Positions 31,135-52,992 of a stretch of 64,000 nt of DNA are shown here, in pieces. The stretch covers positions 1,472,001 to 1,536,000 of the forward strand of contig CP122380.1 of NCBI GenBank assembly GCA_024650005.2, given 5' to 3'. Made by a program: the position numbers and the translations under genes. Each line of letters opens with the position of its first letter. Position 1 is the first letter of the stretch. Below the pieces are notes generated by a model. That model made no database searches. It saw only the letters and a program-made list of their open reading frames with translations, and was not told the origin of the DNA. Source of the DNA: Candidatus Bathyarchaeum tardum. GTDB taxonomy: Archaea > Thermoproteota > Bathyarchaeia > Bathyarchaeales > Bathyarchaeaceae.

Positions 31135-31176
31135 TCCAATGAAATTTAATATACTTTTGACAATTCTTATCTAGCA

Positions 31177-31848
31177 ATGTCCGTATTATTTGAAAAATAT
31201 TTGTCTAATTATGGTGGTGTAAATGATTGGTATCTTCAATCATTTAACCGGTTAAAGGAAAATTTTTTTCTGAATAATATTCTGTATGCTGGAAGTTGGA
31301 TTCACATAACACCGTCTCTAGTGTTCCCCAGGGTAGTTTATGTAGATATTTTTTCAAAGATGAAACAGTTTTTCACTAACCCAGAAGTAATAAATTACAT
31401 AACAAAAAACGCAACAACAAAAAACAAACCCGAAATAGTTTTTCATCAATCAGATTATACCAAAGATTTTGGTGAGGCAAAAAATAGCTTTGATTTACTC
31501 ATATCATTGAACAGCGGTTTTGTCTCTCAAGCTTGTTCATCGTACTTGAAAAAAGATGGTTTACTTTTCGCAAACAATGAACATTTTGACGCCATTACAG
31601 CTTATGTTGACCCCAAATTCAAAGCCATAGGTATATTTACGAAATCAAACAAATTAATTCAAACAAAAAGAGAAGTTGAAACTTATTTTATTACAAAAGA
31701 AGGCTCACCAATAACCCGTGAAATGGTTGAAGAAAACAAAAAAGGTCACCTTCAAAAGCTAAATTCAAATTGGAAAAAAAAGCCCAACTATATCTTTTCC
31801 AAAAACTTGGATAATTGTAACCTCAATTTCTTTATCACATGTGTGTGA
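31177..31848 (+). CDS. Hypothetical protein, SAM-dependent methyltransferase-like fold; possible frameshift near 31740
   Basis: ILYAGS, VYVD, FDLLISL, YLKKDGLLF. Confidence 0.55.
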   Translation: MSVLFEKYLSNYGGVNDWYLQSFNRLKENFFLNNILYAGSWIHITPSLVFPRVVYVDIFSKMKQFFTNPEVINYITKNATTKNKPEIVFHQSDYTKDFGEAKNSFDLLISLNSGFVSQACSSYLKKDGLLFANNEHFDAITAYVDPKFKAIGIFTKSNKLIQTKREVETYFITKEGSPITREMVEENKKGHLQKLNSNWKKKPNYIFSKNLDNCNLNFFITCV

Positions 31849-32083
31849 GTTTTTTGATATTGTATTTCGTTTTGTGTATTGTGAAAAGATGAGTAGATAT
31901 TGGTAGGGGAGTAGAGTTAAACAGAAAGAGAAAGGGTAAAAAGGTTAAATTTTAACTCTAGAACTCAAGGTCTTCTTGTGAGTTATGTAGTTTTATATGA
32001 AAAGTATGAAATTACTTAAAATGGAGTTCTGAGGATTATTTTAACTCACTAGTGTTAAGGGTAAAAATTGAGTTTGCTGATTA

Positions 32084-32524
32084 ATGGTTAGTTGTTTGCT
32101 TTGCGGAAAAGAGTATAATACACAACGAGGCTTGTTTTCACATTTAACTAGGGTCCATGATGTCCGGGACCAAAAACAAAGATTGTCCCTTTATGTTATT
32201 GCTGATTTTTTCCCCTTAATTGACAAAAGAAGTTGGACTAAAGCTGAAACATTACTGCAAGAACTAAAAAAGGAAATAAAAAACAACGAATGGACAATGG
32301 GGTACATTCTCGCCTTGGAAGGCATGATTTCTGCATTAAAAGAAGACAGCTCTCAGGAACCCTACATTTATAGTTTAAAAGACTGCAGCTACAAACAACT
32401 CCAAGAAGTAAAAACAAACTTTAGTGAATTCAACAAAAAACTCGCACCCAAAATCGATTTTGATGCAGCTTATTTTCAAGCATGGAACGACTTCACATAC
32501 TACAAAATGAACTCAAAAATCTGA
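32084..32524 (+). CDS. Hypothetical protein with N-terminal C2H2 zinc finger
   Basis: CLLCGKEYNTQRGLFSHLTRVH (Cx2Cx12Hx4H). Confidence 0.65.
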   Translation: MVSCLLCGKEYNTQRGLFSHLTRVHDVRDQKQRLSLYVIADFFPLIDKRSWTKAETLLQELKKEIKNNEWTMGYILALEGMISALKEDSSQEPYIYSLKDCSYKQLQEVKTNFSEFNKKLAPKIDFDAAYFQAWNDFTYYKMNSKI

Positions 32525-32819
32525 AACAAGAATGAAGAAGTATCATACCGAAAAACAACTTTCACAGCTTTTTCGAGACTTTTACGGACGTTTACAGCCT
32601 TTTACAGCAGAATCTAAACTTAAAATAAACCCAATTAGAGCTCTATTTCCAAAAATAAGCCCAAAAATCAAATCAATAACAAAAATTTTTTTCTGAAATC
32701 GTCACAACAACTACTTCATTCATGAAAAATCGGAACATAATAATAAATAGATTAGAAAAGATTAAATCATTCAAAAATGTATATAACTACAAATACTAGT
32801 ATAGATTTGAGGGAATAAA

Positions 32820-33602
32820 ATGAAAAAAACCGTATTAATTCTCACTTTAGTGCTGGCATTAAGCCTTAGTCTTAACGGTGCACTTTATTTTTTTATAACT
32901 GAAAAAGACTCAAACATTAGTTCCCTTGAACGAAAAATAGAATCCATAACAGACAAGTTTGAAGCTCTGACAAACGATTTTCAAGTCCTTAATTCAACTT
33001 TCCAAGAATACAAAACCAATCACAGCCACTCCAACATTGAATACGACGAACTAACGAGCAGCTACGAACAACTTACAGAAACATACGAAAATTATGTATC
33101 AAACCATACTTTTTCGAATTCACAATACACTACACTTCAAAACCAAGCTACAAGCCTTCAAAACCAATTAGATGAATTGAACCAAAATTATCAGGACATA
33201 ATTGAAGACTATGACAAATTGTTAGCTGATTATAGGTTGATTAATGGTCCTATTTCAGAATTTGATACAATAGATGATTTTGAAATTGAATTATACGTCA
33301 ACAAGACAATCTATTCGTATACAGACCCAATTTTTGGTAATTTGAGCGTCTATTACACCAACGGAACCGCTTTTCAGGGAAGTTTTTTCCTTGCCATATT
33401 TTATGAAGGTGGAGGAGCCTCGTCATCTGGAATGTTTGAAGTTAATGGAGATGGAGAATTCATTGTTGAACCCCCGTATTCATTTAACTTTGGACCCGGA
33501 GACTACACGATACATATTGGTCAACTTTTAAATGTTGATGGTTATTCTGTTGCAGTTTGGGATGAACTACAACATATAGCGGTTAGAGTTGAAGCAAAAT
33601 AA
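32820..33602 (+). CDS. Secreted/membrane-anchored coiled-coil protein with a beta-rich C-terminus
   Basis: Signal/TM helix, heptad pattern, acidic Ig-like tail. Confidence 0.7.
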   Translation: MKKTVLILTLVLALSLSLNGALYFFITEKDSNISSLERKIESITDKFEALTNDFQVLNSTFQEYKTNHSHSNIEYDELTSSYEQLTETYENYVSNHTFSNSQYTTLQNQATSLQNQLDELNQNYQDIIEDYDKLLADYRLINGPISEFDTIDDFEIELYVNKTIYSYTDPIFGNLSVYYTNGTAFQGSFFLAIFYEGGGASSSGMFEVNGDGEFIVEPPYSFNFGPGDYTIHIGQLLNVDGYSVAVWDELQHIAVRVEAK

Positions 33603-33651
33603 GTTTCATAATATTCTGCTAAACTACCCAGTTCTCTCAAAAGTTAGTGTA

Positions 33652-36600
33652 TTATTCGTTTGCTCCTTCTAGTACACCTTCGATTTCTAAGTAGAGTCGT
33701 TGGAGTTCTTTTTTCATTTCTTCAGTTGCGTTCCATAGGTTTCGGTTGATGGTTTCTAAAAGGCGTTCAAGCATGTTTTGTAAAGCATAGGGATTGACTT
33801 CTTTGAGCCATTCTTGCATTTTTTTGTCTAAAACATACTTGTTGGCCAAGTCTTCGTACATCCAGTCTTCAACAACTTCAACGGTGGCATCCCAGCCCAT
33901 AACATCATCAAGAGTCTTGGATAAAGTACCAGCACCAGCATAACCATGACGGACCATACTATCAATCCATTTAGGATTCAAAAGACGGGTACGAAAAACA
34001 TGGCACGTTTCTTCAGCAGTGGTCCTAATTTTTACCCTGTCGGGGTCGGAACTGTCCCCACAAAAAGAGCGGGGCGCCGTTCCAGTTAACGTTTTAACAG
34101 AAACAATCATGCCCCCATGAGCATCATACCAGTCATCACAATCCAAAATGTCATATTCTCGGGAATCTTGATTTTTTACAGTTGCTTGAATTTCACTAAG
34201 ACGGGATTTGAAACGCTCAGGCACTGATTCACCGTAAACTTTTCTGCTGTAAGCATAACTGCCCCAACTGATGTATATATCACTGAGATCTTCTTGGTTT
34301 TCCCAATTCTTGGAACTAACCAACTCACTTACGCCACAACCATATGCTCCCGGGCGGTCCCCAAAAACACGGTAATGAGCTTCTTCCCGAGCTTGATTCT
34401 CATCAACTCCTTCCGTGACACGTTCACGAACTTCATTTTCCACGTGTTTTCTTACAAAATTTTGGTCCAAAGACTCATCAAGACCTGCAACCAAAGCCAC
34501 TGCATCATCAATAAGATGAACAATATTAGGAAAAGTGTCCCGGAACAAACCACTAATCCGAACAGTAGCATCAATTCTAGGACGTTTAAGCTCTTCAAGA
34601 GAAATAAGCTCTAAACCTTTTACCCGACCACTGGATTCTTCCCACACTGGTTTTACACCCATTAAATACAAAATTTCTGCAATGTCGTCCCCTTTTGTTT
34701 TCATGGTATCTGTTGCCCACAAAATAGTGCCAACACTTTCAGGATAACTACTCTCCTCCTTCAAATAACGTTCCAGCAAACCCTCAGCCAATGCAACACC
34801 CACACGCCAGGAAGCAGGAGAAGGAACAGCACGGGGATCAACAGAATAAAAATTTCTGCCCGTCGGCAAAACATCCGCCATGCCTCTTGTAATAGAACCA
34901 GAAGGACCTGGAGGAACAAAACCAGCTTCAAAAGCAGAAATAACATTGAACAATTCATCAGTAGTTTTTTTCAACGCAGGAACTAGAAAATTGGCTACAT
35001 ATTCCAAACACTGTTTCACTTTCGGGTCACTGCAACCAAGCACATCTAACAGAATGGCATCAATTTTAGATTCAGCAAAACCCTTTGCATTGAACTGTTT
35101 CATTAACTCCAAAGCAATACCGTTCATTTCTCTGATCACGTCACCATTTGTCCGCCCATCAGAACGAAACTTTCCCTTGTTCGCAAGCAAATCCTCATAA
35201 TCGTAGCCTTTCAACTCAGCAAGAGACTGCCGCAAAGACGGAGTAGAACCATTGCTTAACCGAGTTAAAGTAACCAAAAACTCTTCTAAACGCTCACCAA
35301 CAGGGGGCTGACCAAGAGTATGTAAACCATCCCGAAGCTGAGCATCAGCCAAATCATGCAAATAAGAATGCAAGGTTTCTAAGAAGGCATCAAAATCAGC
35401 AAAAACAACATCTGAAGTTACGTCCAGATCATGATCCAGCTTGCCTGCAACAACGGTTTCCCAAATCACTTTTTGCAAAACAGGCAACTTTTCTTCATCT
35501 ACAAGCTTCGCATGATAATATTCCTGTAGATGAACTTCAAGTTCTGCTGTTTCTTCATATGAGTCAGCGTTATGCATTACAGGAATCAAGTAATCAACAA
35601 TACAACAGTAACTTCGCCGCTTTGCCTGTGTGCCCTCCCCAGGATTCGTAATAACATAAGGATACACGTTAGGCAAATCAGAAATTGCTACATCGGGAAA
35701 ACAAGAACCAGACAAACCTACAGATTTACCAGGCAACCACTCCAAGCTTCCATGGGTTCCAACATGAATCACTACGTCTGCTTTAAACACATCCCGAATC
35801 CAACGGTAATATCCGTAATAATGATGAGACAACGAAAGATCTGGACTGTGATAGCTTGCTGAGTCATCCCCCAAAGTACCTCGTGGAGGCTGAAGGCCAA
35901 GGAAAATGTTACCGTTGATTATTCCAGGCACAATCAAATTATTTTGATAACTAAAAAGCTTGCCTAGGGGCTCGCCCCATTTTTCCGTCATTTTTTCTTT
36001 AGCATCAAAAGGCAATTCGTTAAACCATTCAAGATATTGTTTACTTGATGTTTTTCCAACTGCACGTTTTGCAAGCTCTTCGATGCTCAACCACCGTAAG
36101 TCGTTAGTCAAACCATTGATTATCCCATCAATCAATTCTTGTCCACTGTCAGGGATATTATCCAAAGTATAGCCTGCATTTTTCATATCAATTAACAAGT
36201 TCAAAACCGAAACAGGAGTATCTATTGCAAAGGCTTTGCCGATAGTGTCATTTCGCGGAGGATAATTATGAAAAATTATTGCAATTTTTCGTTCCCTATT
36301 GGGAACATGTTTTAGTTTAGCCCAATTAATGCTTAATCGCGCAACTTTGTCCACACGTTCAGGAATCGGTTCAAATTGAAGGATTCTAGTTCCAGTAAAA
36401 GAGCTGATTTTAGTTGAATCCATTGCCGCCGTAGGCACAGTGACAAGAAAACCATCAAACTCGGGCATAACTACACTAGGGGGAATGTCGATGAAACTTA
36501 ATCCCTGCATAGTGTCACGCCAGTTTTCAAAACTATTGACTGTTGTTATCGCCTTAATTAGGGGAACATTAAGCTTAGCTAAAGCCTCAGAAGCTTTACT

Positions 36601-37350
36601 ACTTGAAGAAGTCAACGAAAAACTCAAAACACTGACTATCGCGTCAATGACTGGTTTTCCGTTTTTCATGAAAAAATTCTCAATAGTATTAACCAGATTG
36701 CCCCCATGGGATACTGCAATAGCGTTTGCACCATGATGCTCAATAGATGCAATTAAACTGTCAACAAAACTGGTGTTTTCTCCACGCAGCTGAGTAATAT
36801 GAAATAAAATACCGACAGTGGGCTTCCCAGATGTAAGTTTTGTTTCAAAATATTCGTCCAAAGAAACAATCTTGTCAAAATCAGGATGATAAACACCTTC
36901 CCATTGAATTTTTTCTGGAGGGCAAACATCATAATTAGCACCAGTAAAACGATTGACCAAATACAATAGTAGATTCTCAAAATTCTTTTTTCCATTATAC
37001 TGAAGATACTTCAAAATTCGCTGCTTATCTTTTTGCTCAACATTACATACGCTGGGTTGATCCTTGTTTGGAGAAATAATTAATGTTGGAACATTTGAGC
37101 TGTTTAATGTTGCTACAAATCGTTCATAATCGGGAAATTCACCCATCAAATGGGCGATAGCTATATGAGATTTTTTGGAAAAATCAAGAAAATCGTCCAT
37201 CTTGCGGAAGTTTTCACCAGATATTCCTGTTTGGATACGAACATCCACTATGTCGCCAAATTGTTGGTTTACAGATTTTACTGCTGAAACAAGAGGTACT
37301 GTATCAGTTATTACTGTTGCAACGTAAACCAAACGGAGTTTAGTCACCAA
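33652..37350 (-). CDS. cobN: Cobaltochelatase large subunit CobN
   Basis: HNYPP, HVGTHGSLEWLPGK, GEGTQAKRR, LPTGRNFY, RLLNPKW; TTG/GTG start after GGAGGT. Confidence 0.95.
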   Translation of the reverse strand: MVTKLRLVYVATVITDTVPLVSAVKSVNQQFGDIVDVRIQTGISGENFRKMDDFLDFSKKSHIAIAHLMGEFPDYERFVATLNSSNVPTLIISPNKDQPSVCNVEQKDKQRILKYLQYNGKKNFENLLLYLVNRFTGANYDVCPPEKIQWEGVYHPDFDKIVSLDEYFETKLTSGKPTVGILFHITQLRGENTSFVDSLIASIEHHGANAIAVSHGGNLVNTIENFFMKNGKPVIDAIVSVLSFSLTSSSSKASEALAKLNVPLIKAITTVNSFENWRDTMQGLSFIDIPPSVVMPEFDGFLVTVPTAAMDSTKISSFTGTRILQFEPIPERVDKVARLSINWAKLKHVPNRERKIAIIFHNYPPRNDTIGKAFAIDTPVSVLNLLIDMKNAGYTLDNIPDSGQELIDGIINGLTNDLRWLSIEELAKRAVGKTSSKQYLEWFNELPFDAKEKMTEKWGEPLGKLFSYQNNLIVPGIINGNIFLGLQPPRGTLGDDSASYHSPDLSLSHHYYGYYRWIRDVFKADVVIHVGTHGSLEWLPGKSVGLSGSCFPDVAISDLPNVYPYVITNPGEGTQAKRRSYCCIVDYLIPVMHNADSYEETAELEVHLQEYYHAKLVDEEKLPVLQKVIWETVVAGKLDHDLDVTSDVVFADFDAFLETLHSYLHDLADAQLRDGLHTLGQPPVGERLEEFLVTLTRLSNGSTPSLRQSLAELKGYDYEDLLANKGKFRSDGRTNGDVIREMNGIALELMKQFNAKGFAESKIDAILLDVLGCSDPKVKQCLEYVANFLVPALKKTTDELFNVISAFEAGFVPPGPSGSITRGMADVLPTGRNFYSVDPRAVPSPASWRVGVALAEGLLERYLKEESSYPESVGTILWATDTMKTKGDDIAEILYLMGVKPVWEESSGRVKGLELISLEELKRPRIDATVRISGLFRDTFPNIVHLIDDAVALVAGLDESLDQNFVRKHVENEVRERVTEGVDENQAREEAHYRVFGDRPGAYGCGVSELVSSKNWENQEDLSDIYISWGSYAYSRKVYGESVPERFKSRLSEIQATVKNQDSREYDILDCDDWYDAHGGMIVSVKTLTGTAPRSFCGDSSDPDRVKIRTTAEETCHVFRTRLLNPKWIDSMVRHGYAGAGTLSKTLDDVMGWDATVEVVEDWMYEDLANKYVLDKKMQEWLKEVNPYALQNMLERLLETINRNLWNATEEMKKELQRLYLEIEGVLEGANE

Positions 37351-37477
37351 TTTACCTCCAAGCAATGAAACAATTAAAAGTAATTATGTGTAAAATATCG
37401 CTAAAGCATCCACATACATTATTCATGTTTTTTGTAAGTATCCATTTCTTCAACAGATATCAACCCAGTTATTGCGG

Positions 37478-37494
37478 TTGGAATAACCCTCCAA
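37478..37494. promoter_or_regulatory. Operator copy TTGGAA-N5-CTCCAA at the cobN promoter
   Basis: Directly downstream of minus-strand AAAAAAATGTTATATT (BRE/TATA-like). Confidence 0.6.
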
Positions 37495-37589
37495 GAATAT
37501 AACATTTTTTTCAAACAAAGTTAACCAAGGGTTGAATAGCTTGTGCTAAATTCATTTAAATTTGAATGCTGGTATCCGAAAAATTTGTC

Positions 37590-37606
37590 TTGGATAATCC
37601 ATCCAA
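37590..37606. promoter_or_regulatory. Operator TTGGAT-N5-ATCCAA at the cbiB promoter
   Basis: Perfect half-sites abutting ATATTTATAC. Confidence 0.7.
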
Positions 37607-37768
37607 ATATTTATACGGCACCACATAACGATAAACAATTCATGAGCAACAAAAACGATGACAGATCGGTTGATATTTCAAACCCATTGAAAAGGAAGTA
37701 GCCTTTGATGTTCAAACGTGTAATGAGAATAAGAACATTAGTTAGTTGTAGACGTAGTTGGTTGTAAC

Positions 37769-38731
37769 ATGTTTGAAGGAAATATTTCGTTTCTTTTTGA
37801 TTCTTTGTTAGTATTTATTTTGGCATTTTTGATTGACATACTTTTTGGCGAAGCTCCAGACCGGTTTCATCCAACCCTATGGATGGGAACCATTGCAGGG
37901 CGCCTTAAACCTAAATTAAGAAACGATAACCCTAAAATTGAAAAAATTAATGGAATTTTTCTTTGTTTAGGTCTTCTTGCCTTATTTGTAACTCCCACAT
38001 ATTTCGGGGTGTTATGGATTCGTGAATCATTCGGTTGGTTAGTTTACATTGTTGCCTCTGCTTTGATATTACAGACCACTTTTGCAATTAAGTGCATGAA
38101 ACAATACACTTTGCCTGTTGCTGAGGCAGTTGAAAAACAAGATTATGAAACAGCGAAACAGTATCTACCCTTTATTGTAAGGCGCAACCCAAACGGACTG
38201 ACTAGTCGTCACATTATTTCTGCAGCAGTGGAAACAATAGCAGAAGGAACCACCGACGGGATTACGTCACCCTTTTTTTATTTTGCATTGTTTGGAGTTT
38301 CAGGTGCAGTTGCTTTTAGGGTTATTAACACATTGGATTCAATGGTAGGATACAAAGATAAAGAACACATTAACATTGGTTGGTTTTCTGCTTCAATGGA
38401 CACCATAGTTAATTATATTCCAACCAGACTAACTGCAATTTTGATGGTTTTATCAGCATTCGTGTTAAGAAATGATTGGAAAAAATCATGGAGAATTTTG
38501 AGAAGAGATAATAAGAACACAATCAGCCCAAATGCAGGGTGGACAATATCAGCAATGGCTGGTGCGTTAAACATACAACTAGAAAAACCGGGTCACTACA
38601 TTATTGGAGATGAAAACAGTCTATTACCCATGCACATAACTAAAGCCCTTCAGATAATGCTAATGACTTCAATATTGTTTGTAATTTTTGTAGTGTTTCC
38701 TTTGTTGTTTTTGAGAGTAACAGCAATCTAA
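37769..38731 (+). CDS. cbiB: Adenosylcobinamide-phosphate synthase
   Basis: FGE...HP, AVETIAEGTTDG, INTLDSMVGYK, SPNAGW..SAMAGAL. Confidence 0.93.
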   Translation: MFEGNISFLFDSLLVFILAFLIDILFGEAPDRFHPTLWMGTIAGRLKPKLRNDNPKIEKINGIFLCLGLLALFVTPTYFGVLWIRESFGWLVYIVASALILQTTFAIKCMKQYTLPVAEAVEKQDYETAKQYLPFIVRRNPNGLTSRHIISAAVETIAEGTTDGITSPFFYFALFGVSGAVAFRVINTLDSMVGYKDKEHINIGWFSASMDTIVNYIPTRLTAILMVLSAFVLRNDWKKSWRILRRDNKNTISPNAGWTISAMAGALNIQLEKPGHYIIGDENSLLPMHITKALQIMLMTSILFVIFVVFPLLFLRVTAI

Positions 38732-38961
38732 AAAACAGAGTAGATTAGGAAAATCAAAACAACAAGGTTTTAAATAACATTTTCAAATATAAACAATCTA
38801 AAAATTAATCGTTTATGAGAAAAATCTGCCGTAAGAAAAAATTTTTCCATTTTTGTTTATTTTATTCATTATCACTATGAAATTGCCAATTTTTTCGATT
38901 AAAATAACCCCTCAGCCCCCAATCCAGCCCCCAAATTCGCATACTTAATAAAGCAGTAATT

Positions 38962-40587
38962 ATGCTTTTATCACCGATGTCTAACCCAGACCTTTGGAAA
39001 AAATACTGTAGTTTCTACGATAAATCTTTTCAAGAACAAGTTGAATACAACAACGAACGTCTTGAAACCTATTTTTCTAAATGGAAAAAGACTGATATTG
39101 CTAAAAAGTTAGACGAATCTTGCCTCAAAAACTTCAAGGATATCCCCATTACAGATTACAGCAATTATCCCATGTTGCACCATTTTGCAGCAGAGCTCGA
39201 ATCTGCAACAAAAATTAACTCCAGAGCAGAGACAGAGCCATTATCAGAATACTATCATCGAATCAGCAGCAAATTGGGTGAATCCCTTAACAGGTACATG
39301 ACTGAACCATATCACTTCTGTGCAACCACCACTGGCAGCACAGGTAAAAGTAAAATCATAGCAAATGGGGAAACATTCTGGAAAAACTTTTTCCAAGCTT
39401 CTTTAGCAACAGTTTTGGTTTCTTGCAGTGACAGTTGGGGAGAAACAAAACTCAAACAAGGGGATACCGCACTTAACATTAATGCTCCAGTACCTTACAT
39501 TTCAGGCTGGGGCGCGGATGCGTTCAAACACCATTTTAATATGATTCCCCCAATCGATGTCGCAGATAACCTCCAAAACATGAAAGAAAAATTTACGTAT
39601 GTTTTAAAAGCCATTGAAAAAGGGAAAAAAATTGATGTAGCTGGCGGCATTGGTTCCATGTTTTACATGATATGCAAATACCTTGTTGACCCAGAGGAAT
39701 TATTTTCAGAATATTATCGTGGAATGAGCTTTGGCTTGAAGAAAACGTTACTTGCAGTTAAGTTGCTTCAACTCAAGATATCGGGAAAAACAAAAAAACA
39801 GATTTCCGATTTTCTGCCCCTTAAAGGAATTATTGTTGGCGGAATGGATTCACAACTGTATATTGATTTCTTCAAGAATGAATTTAATTTTGAGCCTCTT
39901 CACGCATATGGTGCTACAGAAGCAGGAAATCTAATGAGAGGCGACCCTGACAGAAAAACAGACCTTGTCCCCAATATGATACCGTGCTTTTTAGAGTTCC
40001 AAACTGACAAGGGTGAAATGAAAAATATTGAAGAAATAAAAAAAGGAGAAACTTACAATCTAGTGATAACTCCTTTTGGGTCAATAGTTTTCAGGTATAA
40101 CATGGGAGATCTTTTCCGTGTTGTAGACTTTCGGGATGATGGAATGCCCGTGTTTTCGTTTGAGGGCAGAAAAACTTCAGTAATTGATGTTCTTGGATAT
40201 TATCGCCTGACTTCCAGAGCCATCGTTGATGCGTTATTTGCTGCGGGACTTCGAACTTCAGACAAATGGGCAGTAGCTAAACTTGTGGAACCAAAAGAAA
40301 AACTCTGTTTCCTTATGGAAAAGACATGGAGTTACACTGAAAAAGAAGCTGAAAAAAGAATTTTTGAAGCACTTCAAAAAACACAAAATGATTTTAAAAA
40401 ATACGTAACAGACTTTAACATTAAAGAACCTTCAGAAGCGGTCAAAGTAGAATACATCAGACACGGTGCCTTTCTAAGGTATTCTGCCTTGAAAGGCAAA
40501 ATGGGTGCACCACTAGGACAATACAAACCACCACAGTTGATTCCACCAGATAGAATGGAAATCTATGAAACCCTTAGAAGCTCTTGA
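38962..40587 (+). CDS. GH3-family acyl acid-amido synthetase (ANL adenylating enzyme); likely start at 38977
   Basis: IPITDY, TTGSTGKSK, YGATEAG, FRYNMGD, GQYKPP. Confidence 0.82.
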   Translation: MLLSPMSNPDLWKKYCSFYDKSFQEQVEYNNERLETYFSKWKKTDIAKKLDESCLKNFKDIPITDYSNYPMLHHFAAELESATKINSRAETEPLSEYYHRISSKLGESLNRYMTEPYHFCATTTGSTGKSKIIANGETFWKNFFQASLATVLVSCSDSWGETKLKQGDTALNINAPVPYISGWGADAFKHHFNMIPPIDVADNLQNMKEKFTYVLKAIEKGKKIDVAGGIGSMFYMICKYLVDPEELFSEYYRGMSFGLKKTLLAVKLLQLKISGKTKKQISDFLPLKGIIVGGMDSQLYIDFFKNEFNFEPLHAYGATEAGNLMRGDPDRKTDLVPNMIPCFLEFQTDKGEMKNIEEIKKGETYNLVITPFGSIVFRYNMGDLFRVVDFRDDGMPVFSFEGRKTSVIDVLGYYRLTSRAIVDALFAAGLRTSDKWAVAKLVEPKEKLCFLMEKTWSYTEKEAEKRIFEALQKTQNDFKKYVTDFNIKEPSEAVKVEYIRHGAFLRYSALKGKMGAPLGQYKPPQLIPPDRMEIYETLRSS

Positions 40588-40599
40588 GGATCATAAAAA

Positions 40600-42846
40600 T
40601 TGAGTCAAATTGCATGGTTTCTACAATATATCCTTGGTGGTTTTTTTGCACTTTTCGTTTCTGCATACATTTTTATGAAAGGTTCTTCAGAGAAAAAAAC
40701 CTGGGCATTAAAAGGATTTTTTGTATTTGGTTTATTGATAGCCGTTTGGGAGTTCGCAACTTATTTTCAAAGAACCGCTCCCAGTCCCGAACTTTCAGCT
40801 ATATTCTTCTATATTATCTTGATATCCAGTAGTCTAAGCCAGCCGACATATTTGATTACTGCACTGAACATTCAACGGCAAAAACCATATTTTCTTCTAA
40901 TTTTTATTCCAGCAATTATCCGGCTTGTTACTTTTCTTTTTGTTAACATAACATTTCAAATGACTGATTATGGGTGGACTTATGAGCTTTTAGTCTCTGG
41001 AATTCCCCTTGAAATAGGAACAGCAATATACTTTGGATACTACATTGCAACAATCGTCATTCTTTTTGGTCTTGCAAGAAAAGCAAGGTCGTCGACACTT
41101 AAGAAAAAATATTGGATACTTTTAGCAGGTTACACACTTTTCCAAGTTATAGGCTTCACGGTAACAAACTATTTTCTTACCATTGATCACAATTTTGCAC
41201 CCGTAGGGGGAATATTGCAATTTTTAACATTCATTACTATTGGATTTGCGTTTTCATTAAAGGAAACTAAATTGCCCTCACAAAAATCTGCTATTATCGG
41301 TTTCCCTGAAGTTTATTCATCATTCTTGACGAATTTCTATAATATGTCAACTGACACAAACCTTGGTGAAGCATCATTTAAGTTCCTTGAGTTCCTTAAG
41401 AAATCCCTGATTGCAGATAAGGTTTCGATTGGACCAGATGGGATTTCATTTGAAGCTCCAGATGATTCAAAAATGTTGGAAGTAATTAATCACAACTTGA
41501 ACTTTTTAGAGGAAGAAAAAAACAGTGAACTCACTGACAGCTATCTACGGGTTCTAAATTCTGCTCATTTGATGTTGGGTGACAGCTTCGACAAGGTAGT
41601 CATGAAAAATATTGAGTTTTTGAAAAAATCTGATTTAGTATATGGAATTTCCAACGGGGATTACTTGAGGCGAATAGATGAAGATAGAACATTGAATAAG
41701 TTAAGTGATGTTGAAGCATGTCTAAAAATCTACAAACGTTTACTTTTGGCGGTTTCAGATAAAATTTCGTTGCATGATTTTCAGAACAAACTTGCAATTT
41801 ATCAAAGCACCAAATCGGTTAAAGTGACAAAATATGGTGAAATTTCAATTGAAGCTACAAAAGAAGAAATTATTCGACTGCCCAAAGAGCAAAGATTGTC
41901 TGCAATCATCGAAAGTTTCACTCCTTTAACAAGTTGGATTTATTCACGATTAATTTCAAATTCCTATGTAGGGGATGCTGTTCTCGAAAGTTTGAAACAT
42001 GTTTTAAGATTAAATCGTGAACCTGCAATCGAACTTAGGGTTTACCCGACGCTGTTGGAACGATTAGCTGCCAAAGTCCCTCAAGGAGAAATTGAACAGT
42101 TGTATAATGAATATTTAGAGGAACTGATTGAATTAAAGTCTGATGAACTGCAAGAAGTAAGAGACCGTCTTATAGAAGCTGAACGGTTGTCCGCAATAGG
42201 TAGAACCACAGCAATGGTTGGGCACGATCTTCGCAATCCGCTTCAGGCGATAGTTAACACAATTCATTTGGCACGGATGAAACTGGAACTAATTCCACCT
42301 CAAATTGAAAAACAAGATCTTGAACAAATTTATGATAAAATTGAGGGGCAAGTATTGTATATGGATAAAATAGTTACAGACCTGCAGGACTTTTCCAGAA
42401 AGATAAACCTAAAAAAAGTACCAATAAACGTACAGAAATTAATCGATGAAGTTCTTTCTTCAATATCAATCCCTGGAACCATCAATGTTTCGGTGGATAC
42501 TAAAAATGAGTCTCCTCTGGCTTTAGCAGATTATTCATCAATGAAAAGAGTGTTCGATAATCTTGTTCGTAATGCCATTCAAGCTATGCCTGACGGAGGC
42601 AACCTCAAAATTGGAACAAAATCTTCTGATAAAGAAATTACTGTAATAGTTGAAGATACAGGAGTAGGGATTCCTGAAGATTACATATCAAAAATTTTTG
42701 AACCTTTCTTTACTACTAAAGCTCAAGGGCAGGGATTAGGGTTATCAATATGTAAAAAGTTTGTTGAGGCAAATGGGGGTAGCATAGAAGTTGAAAGTAC
42801 AGAGGGAAAAGGCACCATATTTACAGTTAAATTAAGCCGTGTATGA
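40600..42846 (+). CDS. Membrane sensor histidine kinase (N-terminal ~7TM, helical middle region, HisKA, HATPase)
   Basis: Seven hydrophobic segments; GHDLRNPL, NLVRNAIQA, DTGVGI, FFTTK, GLGL. Confidence 0.92.
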   Translation: MSQIAWFLQYILGGFFALFVSAYIFMKGSSEKKTWALKGFFVFGLLIAVWEFATYFQRTAPSPELSAIFFYIILISSSLSQPTYLITALNIQRQKPYFLLIFIPAIIRLVTFLFVNITFQMTDYGWTYELLVSGIPLEIGTAIYFGYYIATIVILFGLARKARSSTLKKKYWILLAGYTLFQVIGFTVTNYFLTIDHNFAPVGGILQFLTFITIGFAFSLKETKLPSQKSAIIGFPEVYSSFLTNFYNMSTDTNLGEASFKFLEFLKKSLIADKVSIGPDGISFEAPDDSKMLEVINHNLNFLEEEKNSELTDSYLRVLNSAHLMLGDSFDKVVMKNIEFLKKSDLVYGISNGDYLRRIDEDRTLNKLSDVEACLKIYKRLLLAVSDKISLHDFQNKLAIYQSTKSVKVTKYGEISIEATKEEIIRLPKEQRLSAIIESFTPLTSWIYSRLISNSYVGDAVLESLKHVLRLNREPAIELRVYPTLLERLAAKVPQGEIEQLYNEYLEELIELKSDELQEVRDRLIEAERLSAIGRTTAMVGHDLRNPLQAIVNTIHLARMKLELIPPQIEKQDLEQIYDKIEGQVLYMDKIVTDLQDFSRKINLKKVPINVQKLIDEVLSSISIPGTINVSVDTKNESPLALADYSSMKRVFDNLVRNAIQAMPDGGNLKIGTKSSDKEITVIVEDTGVGIPEDYISKIFEPFFTTKAQGQGLGLSICKKFVEANGGSIEVESTEGKGTIFTVKLSRV

Positions 42847-43071
42847 GGGTTTTGCATAGTTTTTCATTCAATTTTTTGCTCAAAAAAGCCTTGAAGTGCA
42901 TTTAAGCATGTTTTATCTTTTTTTTGTCTCAACATAACATACTAAGATGTACCCAACAATTAATTTCGGTATGAAGAAAATGCCAATTTTGTAAATGTTG
43001 AACTTAAATTGATTGGGAATTCACTTGAATATGTGTTCAAACTATTAGTTTCGGTAGGCATTAGATACTAT

Positions 43072-43193
43072 TGTGCTCTCGTCGAAAAGACCTGCTCTGC
43101 ACGCGTAAATCCCAAAATTGACGGCATCTCACAGCGAGATATCCAAAATTAGACTTTTCATGGGAAGCGTGGTACAGGCACGATGAGGGCACA
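43072..43193 (+). ncRNA. Candidate structured RNA, unknown family
   Basis: 13-bp closing helix with two G-U pairs, plus nested CCTG/CAGG, CACGC/GCGTG, TCCCA/TGGGA and ATCTC/GAGAT. Confidence 0.4.
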
Positions 43194-43234
43194 CCGTTTC
43201 ACCATGCAAAATCAGCAAGTCAGGTTCTTAATTT

Positions 43235-43957
43235 TTATTTTTCTTCAGTTCCTCTTACTTTTGTCGATGGAATTATTTTTCTAGCGCATGCAACAAACTT
43301 TTGCATTACATCTTCGGGTAATGTTTTTGTGTTGAAAGATGGATCTAAAACGACTTGTCCAATATTAACGTCAAATTTTTGTAGAACATATTTTTTGGAA
43401 CCTTTTAAAGCGTCGCATATCTGGACAATATCATCAGTTTCATGGATTGTAGGAACAACAGTTGTTCTAAACTCGTAATCAATATCTGAAGTCTTCAGCA
43501 GGTTTATGCTTTTTTTCACGTTTTCAAATAAAGTTTTGGCGTTAACACCAATTGCTTTTGAATAGTTTTCAACGGTTAATGGAGCTTTTACGTCCATGGC
43601 TATGTAATCTACCAGTTTTTTATCAATAAGCTTTTTGAGCATTTTTGGATTGGTTCCGTTGGTGTCCAGTTTAACTAAGAAATTCATCTTCTTTATTTTT
43701 GAGCATAAATCGGGCAAGTCACTATGAAGGGTTGGTTCTCCACCTGTGATGCAAACGCCATCAATCCAGTTTTTTTGTATAGTAAGTTGTTCTTCTAAGT
43801 TTTCAAAAGGGATCGTCTCAATGGTTTCAGGTTTTAGAACAAGATTTCTGTTATGACAGAATGGGCACCTGAAATTACATTTAGGCAAAAAAATTACTGA
43901 AGATACTTTTCCGTCCCAATCCACGAAGCTAATGTCAATGAAACCTTTTATGTCCAC
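43235..43957 (-). CDS. nrdG: Anaerobic ribonucleotide reductase activating protein (radical SAM)
   Basis: CNFRCPFCHN, TGGEPT, KLDTNG, EFRTTVVP. Confidence 0.85.
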   Translation of the reverse strand: MDIKGFIDISFVDWDGKVSSVIFLPKCNFRCPFCHNRNLVLKPETIETIPFENLEEQLTIQKNWIDGVCITGGEPTLHSDLPDLCSKIKKMNFLVKLDTNGTNPKMLKKLIDKKLVDYIAMDVKAPLTVENYSKAIGVNAKTLFENVKKSINLLKTSDIDYEFRTTVVPTIHETDDIVQICDALKGSKKYVLQKFDVNIGQVVLDPSFNTKTLPEDVMQKFVACARKIIPSTKVRGTEEK

Positions 43958-44018
43958 TTTTAATCCCGTTCTAAATCAAATAAAATGTTGGCTGTTTAAG
44001 TTATTTTAGGTAAACACT

Positions 44019-44876
44019 CTAAAAGTTAATGACAGTTCCCGTGTGAACAGAAACAAATCGGTCACCAAATTCTTCAGAAAATTTTTTTATCACATTTTTG
44101 CCAGTGCAATGGCATGGTGCAACAACAGTTGGGTGCAGGTTTTTTATTTCAGTAATTGTTTTTTGAATTTTTTCGTCATTTGCACCAATGAGATGAAAAC
44201 CGCCGACAACAGCATAGATTTTGTTGTTTCCAGTTATTTTTTGTGCATATTTTAGAGTGTTAATTATTCCTGAATGGGCACAACCTGTTATTACAATTAA
44301 ACCTTTGTTTTCAAGATCAATTACTAACGATTGGTCGTCAAGCATTACATCATTAATGAACTTGTTTTGGTGGATTGTCCAAAATCCGTTAACTTTTTCA
44401 AAATCGGTGATTCTGGGAACTTCACCTGTTGTTGTAATTCCCTCTGCAATTTTTACGGGATTTGATGCTAAAAGAGGTACACCACCAACCGTTTCAACAT
44501 CAGAACATTTGAAGGGTGCACCAATTAACCGCAAATGGGGCATCATGCTTAATTTTGGCTCAAAAACGGTTGGATATCCAATAACTGGAACACTTTTTCT
44601 CAGATTTTCGAGTAATTGGATTAAACCTCCAGTGTGATCGTAATGACCATGACTAAGGACAACTGCGTCAACAGATTCTAAATTGACGTTTAATTCAGTA
44701 ATGTTGCTAAGAAGTTTTTCTGGTGAAGCTCCAGTGTCCATTAACACCGTTACTTTATTGGTATCAACTGTTACAGTTACATAAACTGAAAGACCATGTT
44801 TAGCCTCCAATTTTGGGTTATTGCTATTCGTTGTGTTTTCAATTAAAACAGTTAGCTGAACATTTTTTACTGCCAT
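44019..44876 (-). CDS. MBL-fold metallo-hydrolase (COG1237-like)
   Basis: EAKHGLS, SHGHYDHTGG, GCAHSG, GGFHL, PCHCTG. Confidence 0.88.
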   Translation of the reverse strand: MAVKNVQLTVLIENTTNSNNPKLEAKHGLSVYVTVTVDTNKVTVLMDTGASPEKLLSNITELNVNLESVDAVVLSHGHYDHTGGLIQLLENLRKSVPVIGYPTVFEPKLSMMPHLRLIGAPFKCSDVETVGGVPLLASNPVKIAEGITTTGEVPRITDFEKVNGFWTIHQNKFINDVMLDDQSLVIDLENKGLIVITGCAHSGIINTLKYAQKITGNNKIYAVVGGFHLIGANDEKIQKTITEIKNLHPTVVAPCHCTGKNVIKKFSEEFGDRFVSVHTGTVINF

Positions 44877-44999
44877 TTTTTGATGTTACCTTTCTTTAGA
44901 TAATCAACAGTTGTGTTGACAGAAAGTTCTATGTAGCATTAACTAAAGAGACTTGTGTTTAGAAAATAAACAAGAAAAAATGAGCAGAATTTTGTCCAT

Positions 45000-45407
45000 T
45001 TATGAGCTGACTATTGTTGAACGGACCTGTTTTACACCTTTTCGGGTTGCTAGTTCTTGAGCTAGTTTTCGTATTTCTTTTGCATCCCCTTTAACTGCAA
45101 CTGCTTCAAGGCATTCTTTGTCACTTAAATGGACATGAAGCACTGAATTTATGACGCTCCGATGATGGTGCTGAGATTCAACTAGATCGTCTTCTAATCC
45201 TTTTACATCATGGTCGTAAACCATCACGAGCACACCAGCTTTTTTGCCTTCCTGTTTATGAAGTAATTTTTGTTCAGTAACAAACAGTGTCACTGCGTCT
45301 TGAATAGCCTTTGAACGGCTTTCATAACCAATGTTATCAATAATTTCATCTAGTTCAGCTAATAATTCTGGTGGAAAAGTAACTCCAACGCGGACAATCT
45401 TAGTCAT
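45000..45407 (-). CDS. nikR: Nickel-responsive regulator NikR
   Basis: RHH RVGVTFP...SRSKAI; YDH, QH, HVHL...CLE. Confidence 0.92.
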   Translation of the reverse strand: MTKIVRVGVTFPPELLAELDEIIDNIGYESRSKAIQDAVTLFVTEQKLLHKQEGKKAGVLVMVYDHDVKGLEDDLVESQHHHRSVINSVLHVHLSDKECLEAVAVKGDAKEIRKLAQELATRKGVKQVRSTIVSS

Positions 45408-47767: not shown

Positions 47768-48835
47768 TCATTTCATATTCAGGTTTTTCCCAAACAAAGA
47801 ATTCTTTAAAGAAACATCCTGTGAAGAGGCTCTAGCATCAGCTGCTTCAGTACGGTCAATTGAAATATACGCAATCTCATGGGCATGATGTTGTATTTGT
47901 TCAAGACCATCAAAAATCAAACGAAGGTTTGCTAAAGCCAAACTAGGAAGTTCTGATTCGCCATAAATTTTCAGACATTGACTCCACAAATCATCAAAAT
48001 CAAAACATCTATCCAAGACATTATTTGCCAAAGGAATATCTTTAGACAGCAAAGCCTGAACTGAGTCGTCATACATCTTTTGGATTGATTTACCGGTTTC
48101 AGCTAGGAGTTTAGTAAACTCTTCTGGCAGCTCTTTCCCAGTTAATGAGTCGATGTTCTTTGCAATTTTGTTTAAATTACCCGTTATTTCAGAAGTAACA
48201 TGAAGAATTTGAAGATAATCCACACAATCGATCAGGGAAATGGAATCGTTTTGAGATGGTTTGGGGAATAGAATAGAACTTCTTAACAAACGATTAGTAA
48301 CCAAAAGAAGCCGTTTAATGTCCCGAGTTCTTCGGGTTAAACCTTTAATCAGGTCAACATTCTGATTTTCAACAGCTGAAATCGTTTCACTAAACATAGA
48401 AATTATTACATTATGAATCCGTGTTACAGCTTTATTGACAGGCATAGTCTGCTTAAGCAAACAAACAATAGTCATTGTGTTTCCAGTAACTTCAATCAGT
48501 TCTAAACCAAACAAGCTGTCAATTGTTTCACGAATAGAATCATGTTGGTCTTCTGTAAAAGCGGTTTCAGTTTTAACCTTGATGGTGTCAAAACCATCTA
48601 AATATGCACCGATAATTCCCCTTTTAAGAGATTGGCTGGAGCTTTTACGAGTAACATTTAAAGTTATTTCTCGACGTTGATTGCTAACTTGAGGATAAAT
48701 CGAAATGGAACCATCTTGTTGCGTAAGTAAAGTAACTTTTTCTCCATGGTTTAGATGCAACTGGTCAGTCCAAGATTTTGGAATTGAAACATAAAGAGTG
48801 TTGCCAATTTTTTGGATTTTTCTTGTTTCGGACAT
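47768..48835 (-). CDS. Archaeal PhoU-family regulator with an AbrB-type N-terminus
   Basis: RKIQKIGNTLYVSIPKSW, IIGAYLDGFD, PhoU-like helices. Confidence 0.88.
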   Translation of the reverse strand: MSETRKIQKIGNTLYVSIPKSWTDQLHLNHGEKVTLLTQQDGSISIYPQVSNQRREITLNVTRKSSSQSLKRGIIGAYLDGFDTIKVKTETAFTEDQHDSIRETIDSLFGLELIEVTGNTMTIVCLLKQTMPVNKAVTRIHNVIISMFSETISAVENQNVDLIKGLTRRTRDIKRLLLVTNRLLRSSILFPKPSQNDSISLIDCVDYLQILHVTSEITGNLNKIAKNIDSLTGKELPEEFTKLLAETGKSIQKMYDDSVQALLSKDIPLANNVLDRCFDFDDLWSQCLKIYGESELPSLALANLRLIFDGLEQIQHHAHEIAYISIDRTEAADARASSQDVSLKNSLFGKNLNMK

Positions 48836-49941: not shown

Positions 49942-51447
49942 CTAGGAACGGCCACTCAGTATGTGCCTAAGATCAGTTGTTGTTAATACTCCAAGGATTT
50001 TTTTGGGATTAGATTCTTCAACAACTGCAATTCGTCCAATTTCGTAGGTTCTCATCTTTTTGAAAGCATCTAAAGCATGCTCTTTAGGGTAACAGACAAC
50101 AGGGTCATCGTGAGCAATGTCCCTGACCAAAATTTCGTTCCGTTTAGCTTTCTCAACTTTTGCAGCATCTTGCAAAGTTACAACCCCTACAAAGTCCCCA
50201 TTTTCATCTACAACTGGATAGCCAGTGTAATGATACTTTGCCATGAAATCCAAAAGTTGACTAACTGTCAAATTCGGAGATACAGTTTGTAGTTTTTTAG
50301 TCATAACATCTTCAACGTTATACTTGGATAGAATAGCTATTTCGTTCAAAGGCTTGGTAGGAACAGGAACATATGCTTGTTTCATGTCGTTTAGTTCTTT
50401 GATGGCAGTTCGTCTTTTTTGTTGGGCTGCTTCGATAACTTGAGCAAAAGCATCGGGTTCAAGCTCGATTACTCCAGTATTAATCACGCCTGCTTCAACT
50501 GCAGAATAGAAAAAGTTCTCTCCTGCTTTTGTTCTAATTATAACTGTAGACCATTCCTTTAGAGGATACGCAGTTCCAACTGAAATGTCTGCAAGCTCTG
50601 AAGTAAAATCTGTACAAGTTTCACAGCTGGTCAAAATGTTTGGTTTAACTTCAGAAAGGGGAACAATTATTGTTTCTTTGTCTGTTTTCACATAAAGCTT
50701 ATCAACGATGTCTAAACGTTTGATGTCATCTTGGTCAAGATTGTATTTTTCTTTAAGATATTTCAGCATACTACCAAAAGAAAGGGTCCAAAAACAGAAA
50801 AGACCAATGATTACTTTCAGGTTTCCTGAAATTCTGTGTTCCCAAGCTTCAAGTTTACGTAAAGCCAAAACGTGACAAGGTACCCCAACAAAGGCAATGT
50901 TACCTTTTCCGTATTCGTAAACTGCACTTCCGTATGCTCGGGCAACTGATGATGGAAAGAATTTACTTCCAACAGCTGCAAAAATGTCGTCTGGAACAAC
51001 ACCAACTAGTGCTTTGGGTTTAATGGGAACGTCAGTTTCCGCTTGAGAGACAATTGCACTATCAATAATCCCAGTATCTATGGCATTTGTTAGAAGAGTG
51101 GTAACAACTCCACCGCCATGACCAAGTTTTCTTAGTTCGGGGTCTGCGGCTTGGGCAAGCAAAATTTTTCGGTAGTAGCCTAAGCCTTCTCGTTTTGTGG
51201 GTGAGTCAGAAACAAACTTGAGTGTAGCACGCATAAGGGTGTCAGAATGGGGACAAATCTCAAAACAGATTGGACAAGATCCTATATGTTCTGAGCAATC
51301 AAAATGTTCCACTTTTCCGTCTCCAACGGTTATTGCGTGAACAGGGCATGCGGCTTCACAGGCTCCGCAGAAGGTGCAAAAACCAGAATTAATGATTTTA
51401 CTTTCTAAATCATTGTATGCTATTGCATTTTCCTTTTTTGTTGCCAA
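49942..51447 (-). CDS. FrhB/FpoF-family F420-binding subunit with two [4Fe-4S] motifs, fused to a C-terminal CBS pair
   Basis: CTFCGACEAACP, GGGVVT, GVPCHV, GLFC, CETCTDF..ELADISVG; VEDVMT...GYPVVD, ILGVLTTTD. Confidence 0.88.
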   Translation of the reverse strand: MATKKENAIAYNDLESKIINSGFCTFCGACEAACPVHAITVGDGKVEHFDCSEHIGSCPICFEICPHSDTLMRATLKFVSDSPTKREGLGYYRKILLAQAADPELRKLGHGGGVVTTLLTNAIDTGIIDSAIVSQAETDVPIKPKALVGVVPDDIFAAVGSKFFPSSVARAYGSAVYEYGKGNIAFVGVPCHVLALRKLEAWEHRISGNLKVIIGLFCFWTLSFGSMLKYLKEKYNLDQDDIKRLDIVDKLYVKTDKETIIVPLSEVKPNILTSCETCTDFTSELADISVGTAYPLKEWSTVIIRTKAGENFFYSAVEAGVINTGVIELEPDAFAQVIEAAQQKRRTAIKELNDMKQAYVPVPTKPLNEIAILSKYNVEDVMTKKLQTVSPNLTVSQLLDFMAKYHYTGYPVVDENGDFVGVVTLQDAAKVEKAKRNEILVRDIAHDDPVVCYPKEHALDAFKKMRTYEIGRIAVVEESNPKKILGVLTTTDLRHILSGRS

Positions 51448-51497
51448 TCAATTCCCCACCATTATTTTGTATGTGATTTTTAGTTAAGATTTTTGGG

Positions 51498-52979: not shown

Positions 52980-52992
52980 TGTTTTTGCCTCT

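Follow-up and report, generated by a model that had tools for sequence, protein, structure and literature searches.

Signal modules that combine an enzyme with a membrane kinase are known from bacteria. In the autoinducer systems LuxM/LuxN, CqsA/CqsS and LqsA/LqsS, and in the diffusible signal factor (DSF) system RpfF/RpfC/RpfB, the gene of an enzyme lies beside that of a multi-pass kinase without a large extracellular domain, the hydrophobic ligand is sensed within the membrane, and RpfB is an adenylate-forming enzyme which acts on the signal. This study concerns a pair of genes of comparable layout in an archaeon, Candidatus Bathyarchaeum tardum. In a stretch of 64,000 nucleotides (assembly GCA_024650005.2, contig CP122380.1, positions 1,472,001 to 1,536,000, referred to as the window), a gene of the GH3 family of adenylate-forming amido synthetases (38962-40587, plus strand, 541 aa, ATG start, stop codon TGA at 40585-40587) is followed after a spacer of 12 bp (40588-40599) by the gene of a membrane histidine kinase (40600-42846, plus strand, 748 aa, TTG start), whose N-terminal sensor has seven transmembrane helices (7TM). 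A first-pass annotation made from the sequence alone had described a GH3 gene 12 bp upstream of a multi-pass membrane histidine kinase, and both the open reading frames (ORFs) and the spacer were confirmed. What the window shares with the autoinducer pairs is the adjacency of genes for an enzyme and a polytopic kinase, conserved as a pair, whereas the enzymes and receptors of the autoinducer and DSF systems are unrelated in sequence to those of the window, and the kinase of the window type can be replaced by DUF835.

On the enzyme side, the plant GH3 proteins are the only solved structures matched by the sequence of the window GH3. The plant enzymes (JAR1/GH3.11, GH3.12/PBS3 and GH3.5/6/8/15) resemble it in the three nucleotide-binding motifs and in the C-terminal GQYK(T/P)P. 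However, the identity is about 15%, the N-terminal 300 residues are left unaligned by the hidden Markov model, the P-loop is one residue shorter in the window (TTGSTGKSK as opposed to SSGTSQGRPK), and plant GH3 enzymes are not encoded next to their receptors. Prokaryotic GH3 proteins are numerous, and one of them has a demonstrated activity, the GH3-like OlsH from Singulisphaera acidiphila, which uses ATP to link a free acid and an amino acid into N-acyl amino acids (PMC12493201; this article, PMC5847659 and PMC6944256 are cited here and below for the sections consulted). OlsH is likened to the window GH3 by description and not by sequence, and its operon contains an alpha/beta-hydrolase O-acyltransferase and a methyltransferase for a membrane lipid (PMC12493201), whereas the only conserved partner of the window GH3 is a sensor.

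On the receptor side, the kinases and cyclases of the HisKA_7TM family (PF16927) carry seven helices N-terminal to their outputs together with W50, P104 and a GWxY hairpin, as in the window sensor. A link to GH3 is seen only for the subfamily to which the window sensor belongs, in a comparison that leaves aside the neighbours of the 11 canonical members. In the consulted sections of PMC5847659 and PMC6944256, HisKA_7TM is a sensor family without an assigned ligand for any member. Archaeal clusters of KaiC, DUF835 and MEDS have been described, and Galperin et al. 2018 (PMC5847659) regard DUF835 as an inactivated KaiC that serves as an output domain; the Hadarchaeum version of the pair sits in such a cluster, whereas the window version has a classical histidine kinase, and those sections mention no GH3 partner. 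Literature searches, with supplements and Makarova et al. 2017 (mBio, KaiC-like hubs) outside their coverage, returned no description of a GH3-7TM or GH3-kinase pair. The pairing, its archaeal distribution and the interchangeable kinase and inactive-KaiC outputs therefore appear to be new, both protein families being already known, and the pairing gives GH3 and HisKA_7TM a functional context.

Conservation of the gene pair

The GH3 search, in which one genome per GTDB species was used, yielded 25 species loci from 20 Bathyarchaeota/Bathyarchaeia, one 'Thermoprotei archaeon', three Hadarchaeum and one Hydrothermarchaeota. A 7TM homolog directly adjoins GH3 in 22 of these, 13 times downstream in the same direction and nine times upstream in divergent orientation. 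The remaining three (L006, L007, L014) are cut by a contig end that lies at most 158 nt from the GH3 5' end or within it; their partner would lie past the contig, since three small ORFs mark them as members of the divergent-type clade. The codirectional relatives keep a tight spacing between the two genes, about 20-45 bp. Starting from the 7TM side, 18 loci were found in 17 of the 401 genomes of the phylum, and GH3 adjoins the sensor in all 18, the window included. When the same 401 genomes were searched with GH3, these 17 came up again, and besides them only G135, where a fragment stops at the contig end, and G336, whose partial match is weak (E 2e-14). For the Hadarchaeum phylum, GH3 and 7TM are found in an identical set of 11 out of 66 genomes, and nine of these carriers show direct adjacency by coordinates; G436 has each gene at the end of a different contig, and in G414 a GH3 fragment lies beside the 7TM gene. 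Alignment of GH3 additionally led to 51 metagenome loci, two of which are partial matches at 24% identity and were not counted as family. In the other 49, a 7TM gene adjoins GH3 in 39 cases (29 codirectional, 10 divergent) and nine loci are cut by a contig end on the side in question, the last one being the exception L106 described below. The species, phylum and metagenome sets supply about 100 GH3-7TM pairs; they overlap in lineage, and their counts are not independent.

The pair spans Bathyarchaeia, Hadarchaeum, a metagenome-assembled genome (MAG) of Hydrothermarchaeota and an unnamed family of the same phylum, and GH3 and this 7TM domain are near-obligate neighbours, whatever the output domain. 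The first-pass annotation had proposed a survey of archaea for the two genes as conserved neighbours and had named an adjacency unique to this genome as what would speak against its interpretation; the survey was positive from the species, 7TM and metagenome sides, and the pair is found across several archaeal groups.

Clustering of the ORFs over the 25 species loci showed that only GH3 (25/25) and 7TM (22/25) are universal, while the other neighbours are clade-specific. The pair is also gained or lost together. Searches of the three other genomes of the genus and of two more from the family did not find it. One congener matches the window in gene order on both flanks, with CobN-CbiB on one side and NrdG, a metallo-beta-lactamase-fold gene and NikR on the other, and has 204 bp in place of window positions 38705-42690; the 3986 bp lost comprise the whole of GH3 and kinase residues 1 to about 697. 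Between CbiB and NrdG of this congener (L081, G169:C32, 9770-10548), a remnant of about 130 nt from the 3' end of the kinase gene is left, in which the last 52 or so codons are recognisable. The collinear flanks and the kinase remnant therefore indicate that the pair was deleted in the sister lineage. G111 contains two copies of each gene, arranged as two adjacent pairs, and in a member of the Hadarchaeum phylum (G451:C1:645649-647826) both genes look like pseudogenes, the 7TM gene having an internal TGA and an internal TAG and GH3 being split over two frames. GH3 and 7TM are thus inherited, lost, rearranged and decaying as a unit.

The GH3 enzyme and the seven-helix sensor

The features of the locus are as follows, with the basis of each assignment in brackets.

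38945-38952, plus strand: TATA-box-like element TTAATAAA, about 25-32 nt 5' of the ATG at 38977 (read from the sequence)
38962-40587, plus strand: gene of a GH3-family adenylate-forming amido synthetase (Pfam, homology, motifs)
40588-40599, plus strand: spacer between the GH3 and kinase genes (read directly)
40600-41265, plus strand: 7TM sensor domain, kinase residues 1-222 (hydropathy, model, fold comparison)
41290-42144, plus strand: all-alpha cytoplasmic middle domain, kinase residues 231-515 (model)
42199-42837, plus strand: kinase core, HisKA and HATPase_c (Pfam)
42860-42925, plus strand: oligo-T tracts (T5, T6, T8) 3' of the kinase stop codon (read directly)

The GH3 protein is recognised by Pfam through its middle domain only (GH3_M, 29.2 bits as opposed to a cut-off of 23.6); the GH3 N-terminal and GH3_C models were unmatched at E 0.01, and the NCBIfam scan was empty. 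All eight matches of the single sequence to the PDB (phmmer) and all ten of a 13-sequence profile (best E 1e-8) are plant GH3 chains, and the nearest Atlas clusters to the window protein are GH3, at 0.98. The lysine of the GQYK(T/P)P motif has a catalytic role in GH3 enzymes, and in the window protein this motif reads GQYKPP (residues 519-524), aligns to GQYKTPR of GH3.12 and contains the invariant K522. The nucleotide-binding motifs, as defined for GH3 in PMC12493201, are the P-loop TTGSTGKSK (motif I, 123-131), YGATE (motif II, 316-320), which aligns to YGSSE of JAR1, and FRYNMGD (motif III, 377-383), which aligns to YRYRLGD of JAR1. No variation occurs across 57 GH3 sequences, down to 38% identity, in the P-loop G and K, in YG of motif II, in D of motif III or in the C-terminal K, and the E of YG..E is invariant or nearly so. 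Such invariance of the ATP-binding motifs means that GH3 is under selection as a catalyst, and by its motifs the window protein would be a catalytically intact GH3-type ligase, in line with the intact adenylation motifs reported in the first-pass annotation. Since hydropathy reveals no hydrophobic segment, the enzyme is expected to be cytoplasmic. The AlphaFold model of GH3 (13 sequences) is poor, with a predicted local distance difference test (pLDDT) of 57.8; with this low-confidence model, Foldseek placed plant GH3 on ranks 1-19 (E 3e-14 to 4e-11, TM-scores 0.28-0.40), followed by PaaK-type ligases from 1e-10.

The kinase contains HisKA at residues 534-601 (Pfam, E 9e-9), with an H-box reading GHDLRNPL, and HATPase_c at 644-746 (E 5.5e-28), and with these it classifies by sequence as a class I sensor histidine kinase. 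The model of residues 1-515 (66 sequences) is confident (pLDDT 93.4, predicted template modelling score 0.88) and contains seven membrane helices at 2-27, 35-58, 63-92, 96-112, 135-161, 165-195 and 203-219, with which hydropathy agrees, so that the seven-helix topology named in the first-pass annotation stands. The N terminus is placed outside and the C terminus inside, in agreement with the charged loops. The outer loop joining helices 4 and 5 contains a modelled beta-hairpin (117-130), in which G125 and W126 are invariant and Y128 is present in 18 of 19 sequences. In the 66-sequence alignment, seven of the nine most conserved 7TM positions (Y10, W50, A60, G125, W126, G203, G204) lie in the outer half or the outer loops, which suggests a pocket open to the outside or to the outer leaflet. 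Comparison of the 7TM model with 48,161 chains by VIA-align gave a designed GPCR-like fold as the best match (8oyx_B; Z 18.2, root-mean-square deviation 3.0 over 206 residues), GPCR being short for G protein-coupled receptor. GABA-B, GPR156, mGlu and adhesion receptors followed at Z 14.9-17.0 in the top 12 rows, and all 50 rows listed (Z 18.2-13.6) are seven-helix membrane proteins, mostly GPCRs, the caution level of the method for helical bundles being Z of about 13. The assignment of a GPCR-like fold relies on VIA-align and not on Foldseek, which found nothing for the 7TM model at E 1e-3 or better. As the sequence identity to the GPCR-like chains is only 6-12%, the likeness shows a shared fold only.

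Between the sensor and the kinase core, the model contains an all-alpha cytoplasmic domain (235-514). Neither residues 1-230 nor residues 231-515 of the window protein match a Pfam family. For the middle domain (231-515), scattered Pfam matches among 22 members were at E 0.003 or weaker, the only PDB match was at E 0.03, and the Atlas gave nothing above 0.76. The first 100 or so residues of this domain accompany the 7TM domain in all forms, including the partners of the DUF835 type.

In a search of 1.84 billion representatives, the 7TM profile matched 219 proteins at E 1e-3 or better and 64 at 1e-30 or better. Of the 150 matches listed, 86 were scanned with Pfam, leaving out 18 of the first 104 (15 of which are fragments shorter than 200 aa) and all those weaker than P0238. 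The 72 closest relatives scanned comprise 12 with kinase domains, some with PAS, 34 with DUF835, DUF7504 or DUF7090, and 26 without a recognised output, 15 of these with a length of at most 293 aa. HisKA_7TM (PF16927) is matched by 14 of the 72 at E 1e-3 or better, two being above the cut-off of 28.6 bits, and the next 14 weaker matches of the profile that were scanned include 11 genuine members of PF16927, whose outputs are PAS-GGDEF, EAL, SpoIIE or kinase and which are retrieved at E 1e-12 to 1e-6. The window residues 1-230 themselves give no PF16927 match even at E 10. Common to the 11 canonical members are W50 (11/11), G125 (11/11), W126 (10/11) and P104 (10/11), and the hairpin G125-W126-x-Y128 occurs in both the GH3-linked subfamily and canonical HisKA_7TM. 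Specific to the subfamily are Q9, K170, Y171, G203-G204 and F211; the canonical counterpart of K170 is Q in nine of 11 and that of Y171 is mostly A. The window sensor is accordingly best described as a divergent relative of HisKA_7TM, and not as a member by the Pfam rule.

Across the family, the 7TM domain is followed by HisKA-HATPase, by a PAS-kinase, by DUF835, DUF7504 or DUF7090, or it stands alone with a DUF835 gene behind it. In Bathyarchaeia it is joined to a histidine kinase, in Hydrothermarchaeota and on many metagenome contigs it is fused to DUF835, and in the unnamed family of the phylum it is combined with the middle domain and a DUF835-like domain. In Hadarchaeum, a stand-alone 7TM gene is followed by two DUF835 genes within a KaiC...MEDS-PadR cluster, in the order KaiC, GH3, 7TM, DUF835 (295 aa), DUF835 (623 aa) and MEDS-PadR (L022:5173-12219, also L023 and L024). 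Taken together, the 246-aa 7TM protein and the DUF835 protein of 295 aa resemble the fused proteins of about 525 aa split in two. Because the output switches to DUF835 in other lineages, GH3 is tied to the input domain and not to the kinase, and this link fits a role of GH3 at the signal-input step.

A possible signal and the competing explanations

The interpretation we favour, although it is tentative and slightly more apt to be wrong than right, is that GH3 makes an acyl-amide ligand which the 7TM receptor binds. With ATP, GH3 would adenylate a carboxylic acid, probably a hydrophobic one, and couple it to an amine, which is probably an amino acid. The resulting amphiphile would enter the membrane and bind to the 7TM bundle under the conserved GWxY hairpin, and binding would set the autophosphorylation of HisKA/HATPase through the helical middle domain or, in other archaea, the signalling of DUF835 as an inactive KaiC. 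The phosphoryl group would then pass to an unlinked receiver, and the signal would either act between cells, as in quorum sensing, or report the metabolic or membrane state of the cell itself. Chemically, an acyl-amino-acid product is plausible: OlsH, so far alone among prokaryotic GH3-like enzymes in being characterised, produces N-acyl-ornithine from ornithine and free fatty acid at the expense of ATP (PMC12493201). The first-pass annotation had proposed a module that makes or inactivates an N-acyl amide signal sensed by the 7TM domain; of this, the gene identities, the likely operon, the conserved pairing and the tracking of the 7TM input by GH3 have gained support, while the ligand itself stays conditional.

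The first-pass annotation had seen no response regulator in the window, and this holds. No receiver domain was found among the 55 window ORFs scanned, and none of the 13 receiver matches in the single-contig genome of 2,152,572 bp lies inside the window. A lead comes from the 12 loci of the divergent type (L005-L008, L010, L012-L015, L017, L018, L020), in 11 of which a stand-alone receiver of 171 aa is encoded just past the GH3 3' end, together with ORFs of 135 aa (12/12) and 128 aa (11/12), neither of which has a known family. Receiver gene and both ORFs run convergently towards the 3' end of GH3 (e.g., L005:7247-7654, L006:2211-2597, L015:6760-7275). In the window genome, the best homolog of the 171-aa receiver is found at 705072-705512 with 51% identity, beside a homolog of the 128-aa ORF at 705625-705897; the 135-aa ORF has no match in this genome. 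The receiver at 705072-705512 is the best candidate for an unlinked cognate regulator and may serve as a lead only.

Several points weigh against a ligand made by GH3. The enzyme is cytoplasmic while the conserved face of the receptor is external, so that the product must cross or enter the membrane, and no exporter gene is conserved beside the pair in the 25 species loci. To our knowledge, archaea have little free fatty acid. This makes the acyl substrate obscure, as archaea are also not known to make N-acyl amino lipids according to the consulted sections of PMC12493201. The substrate pocket of GH3 appears unreadable in the poor model (pLDDT 57.8). L106 is a true exception among the 49 metagenome loci, a GH3 gene without a 7TM neighbour, which is preceded by a gene for a 193-aa PAS/coiled-coil protein and followed by a UbiA-like membrane ORF (L106:126-2924), and for a second 7TM copy in G414 (G414:C98) the 1045 bp upstream contain no match to GH3. 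Finally, the tight gene linkage would fit a relationship between the two proteins equally well.

Such a relationship, in which GH3 acts on or with the receptor as a stoichiometric cytoplasmic co-sensor, the 7TM and middle domains reading the movement that substrate drives between its domains, or as a covalent modifier (for example by acylation or adenylylation of a cytoplasmic residue as an adaptation mark), is in our view unlikely, though it needs no exporter and accommodates the one-to-one pairing, the co-duplicated pairs in G111 and the adjacency kept in both codirectional and divergent arrangements. A concrete lead is given by K170 and Y171, located where helix 6 ends on the cytoplasmic side: they vary little or not at all within the subfamily linked to GH3, whereas 10 of 11 canonical HisKA_7TM proteins have Q and mostly A there. 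However, no fused GH3-7TM protein, nor any other longer GH3 fusion, was found among the longer proteins searched, which is weak evidence, and the characterised GH3 enzymes use small-molecule amines (PMC12493201; plant structures). Fully conserved catalytic motifs speak against a co-sensor devoid of catalysis, though not against an enzyme that modifies. A complex prediction for GH3 (57-row alignment) and 7TM (19 rows), run without controls, scored 0.00 as opposed to a mark of 0.32 and is evidence neither way. Plant GH3 enzymes inactivate auxin through amido conjugates of indole-3-acetic acid, and the acyl-CoA ligase RpfB turns over DSF beside the membrane kinase RpfC. A corresponding signal turnover or adaptation, with a carboxylic acid of external or metabolic origin as the compound sensed by the receptor and GH3 removing, trapping or inactivating this acid by conjugation, is decidedly unlikely here: the outward-facing conserved residues of the receptor suit an exogenous ligand and GH3 chemistry consumes a free acid (PMC12493201), but no uptake transporter or catabolic gene is conserved as a neighbour, and a GH3 without a sensor would be expected somewhere, whereas in 467 genomes none was found except the contig-end fragment and the weak distant match.

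It is very improbable that the product of GH3 is a structural amino lipid, like that of OlsH, and that the 7TM domain monitors membrane composition for membrane homeostasis. OlsH does show that a prokaryotic GH3 can start amino-lipid synthesis, and a polytopic sensor without an extracellular domain suits a reading of the bilayer; against this, neither an O-acyltransferase (the role of OlsI) nor any other lipid gene is conserved as a neighbour, N-acyl amino lipids are not known in archaea in the same sections of PMC12493201, and the pair is patchy and dispensable, being absent in all three other genomes of the genus and deleted in one. Least credible of all, to the point of being almost negligible, is that the two genes are functionally unrelated and that their adjacency reflects shared locus ancestry only. 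Many loci do come from related Bathyarchaeia, with counts that are not independent, but the surrounding genes differ by lineage while the pair persists, the two genes stayed together when the arrangement switched from codirectional to divergent, the pair is still found where GH3 identity falls to 38-46%, across at least three named archaeal groups, and the genome-level presence patterns of the two genes are identical in two phyla.

Should GH3 supply the ligand of the receptor, archaea would have a signal of a new chemical class, and it would offer one of the few handles on signalling in uncultured sediment archaea. Outside eukaryotes, too, a small-molecule ligase would then have come to be paired with a seven-helix receptor. 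Should GH3 modify the receptor or act as its partner, the pair would exemplify a new way of regulating receptors. A bolder and rather doubtful proposal is that several archaeal lineages run a hormone-like circuit in which an acyl-amino-acid signal, made by GH3 and released, is received by a GPCR-like 7TM receptor wired to a kinase or to an inactive KaiC; this would amount to a dedicated system of synthase and receptor for communication in archaea. The lineages concerned are Bathyarchaeia, Hadarchaeum and the Hydrothermarchaeota MAG, with an Asgard archaeon by database name only. Should it hold, it would provide the first ligand assigned to the HisKA_7TM superfamily, with a conjugation chemistry as in plant jasmonate and auxin signalling.

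Transcription signals and the surrounding window

The true start of GH3 is probably M6 (ATG 38977), giving a protein of 536 aa, because the homologs have 536 aa and the Atlas entry begins at residue 6. By the usual spacing of archaeal promoters, the TATA-box-like element TTAATAAA, if it acts as the promoter, would yield a leaderless transcript beginning at M6. A GAGGA (40586-40590) overlaps the GH3 stop codon and lies 10-14 nt 5' of the kinase TTG. Archaeal transcription terminates at oligo-T, and the tracts at 42860-42925 are likely to be the end of a two-gene transcript; the GH3 and 7TM kinase genes likely form an operon. The pair is set off by gaps on both sides, which the first-pass annotation had noticed as sizeable, upstream 230 bp (38732-38961) between the CbiB gene and the pair, and downstream 388 bp (42847-43234) between the pair and a convergent NrdG-like radical-SAM gene. 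Its DNA is lower in GC (0.35-0.37) than most of the window (about 0.40). An Rfam scan of window positions 37000-45000 found no riboswitch 5' of GH3; a tmRNA-like match on the minus strand at 44183-44270, inside the metallo-beta-lactamase-fold gene, scored 14.4 bits as opposed to 47 (E 0.013) and was taken as chance.

A link of the pair to cobalamin was considered on account of CbiB and CobN just upstream and was rejected, as these genes do not adjoin the pair in the other 25 loci. They belong to a large tetrapyrrole/cobalamin region (4081-38731) with HemD, CobA-like methylases, HemC, HemL, HemB, a siroheme-synthase-like gene, CbiA/CobQ-like genes, CbiD/CbiG/CbiZ, BtuCD-type ABC transport, CobN, a ChlI/VWA chelatase subunit and CbiB. 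Within it, an ORF of 849 aa (10976-13525) combines the Pfam domains GlutR, CbiX and CbiC in a single frame, and an ORF of 996 aa (23607-26597), beside FecCD and ABC ATPase genes, contains three Peripla_BP_2 stretches of the cobalamin/siderophore type. An ORF of 142 aa (30706-31134) matches Cas1 over no more than the C-terminal part of the profile (positions 205-265 of 283) and is likely a remnant; it falls in the stretch of lowest GC of the window (30001-34000, 0.336-0.344 as opposed to about 0.40 elsewhere). On the other side of the pair, 47768-48835 encodes a protein of 355 aa with an AbrB/MazE-type N-terminal domain and two PhoU domains, and in 49942-61255 the 11 genes of a Nuo/Mrp-like membrane complex come after one for an FrhB/FdhB-like protein that carries CBS domains.

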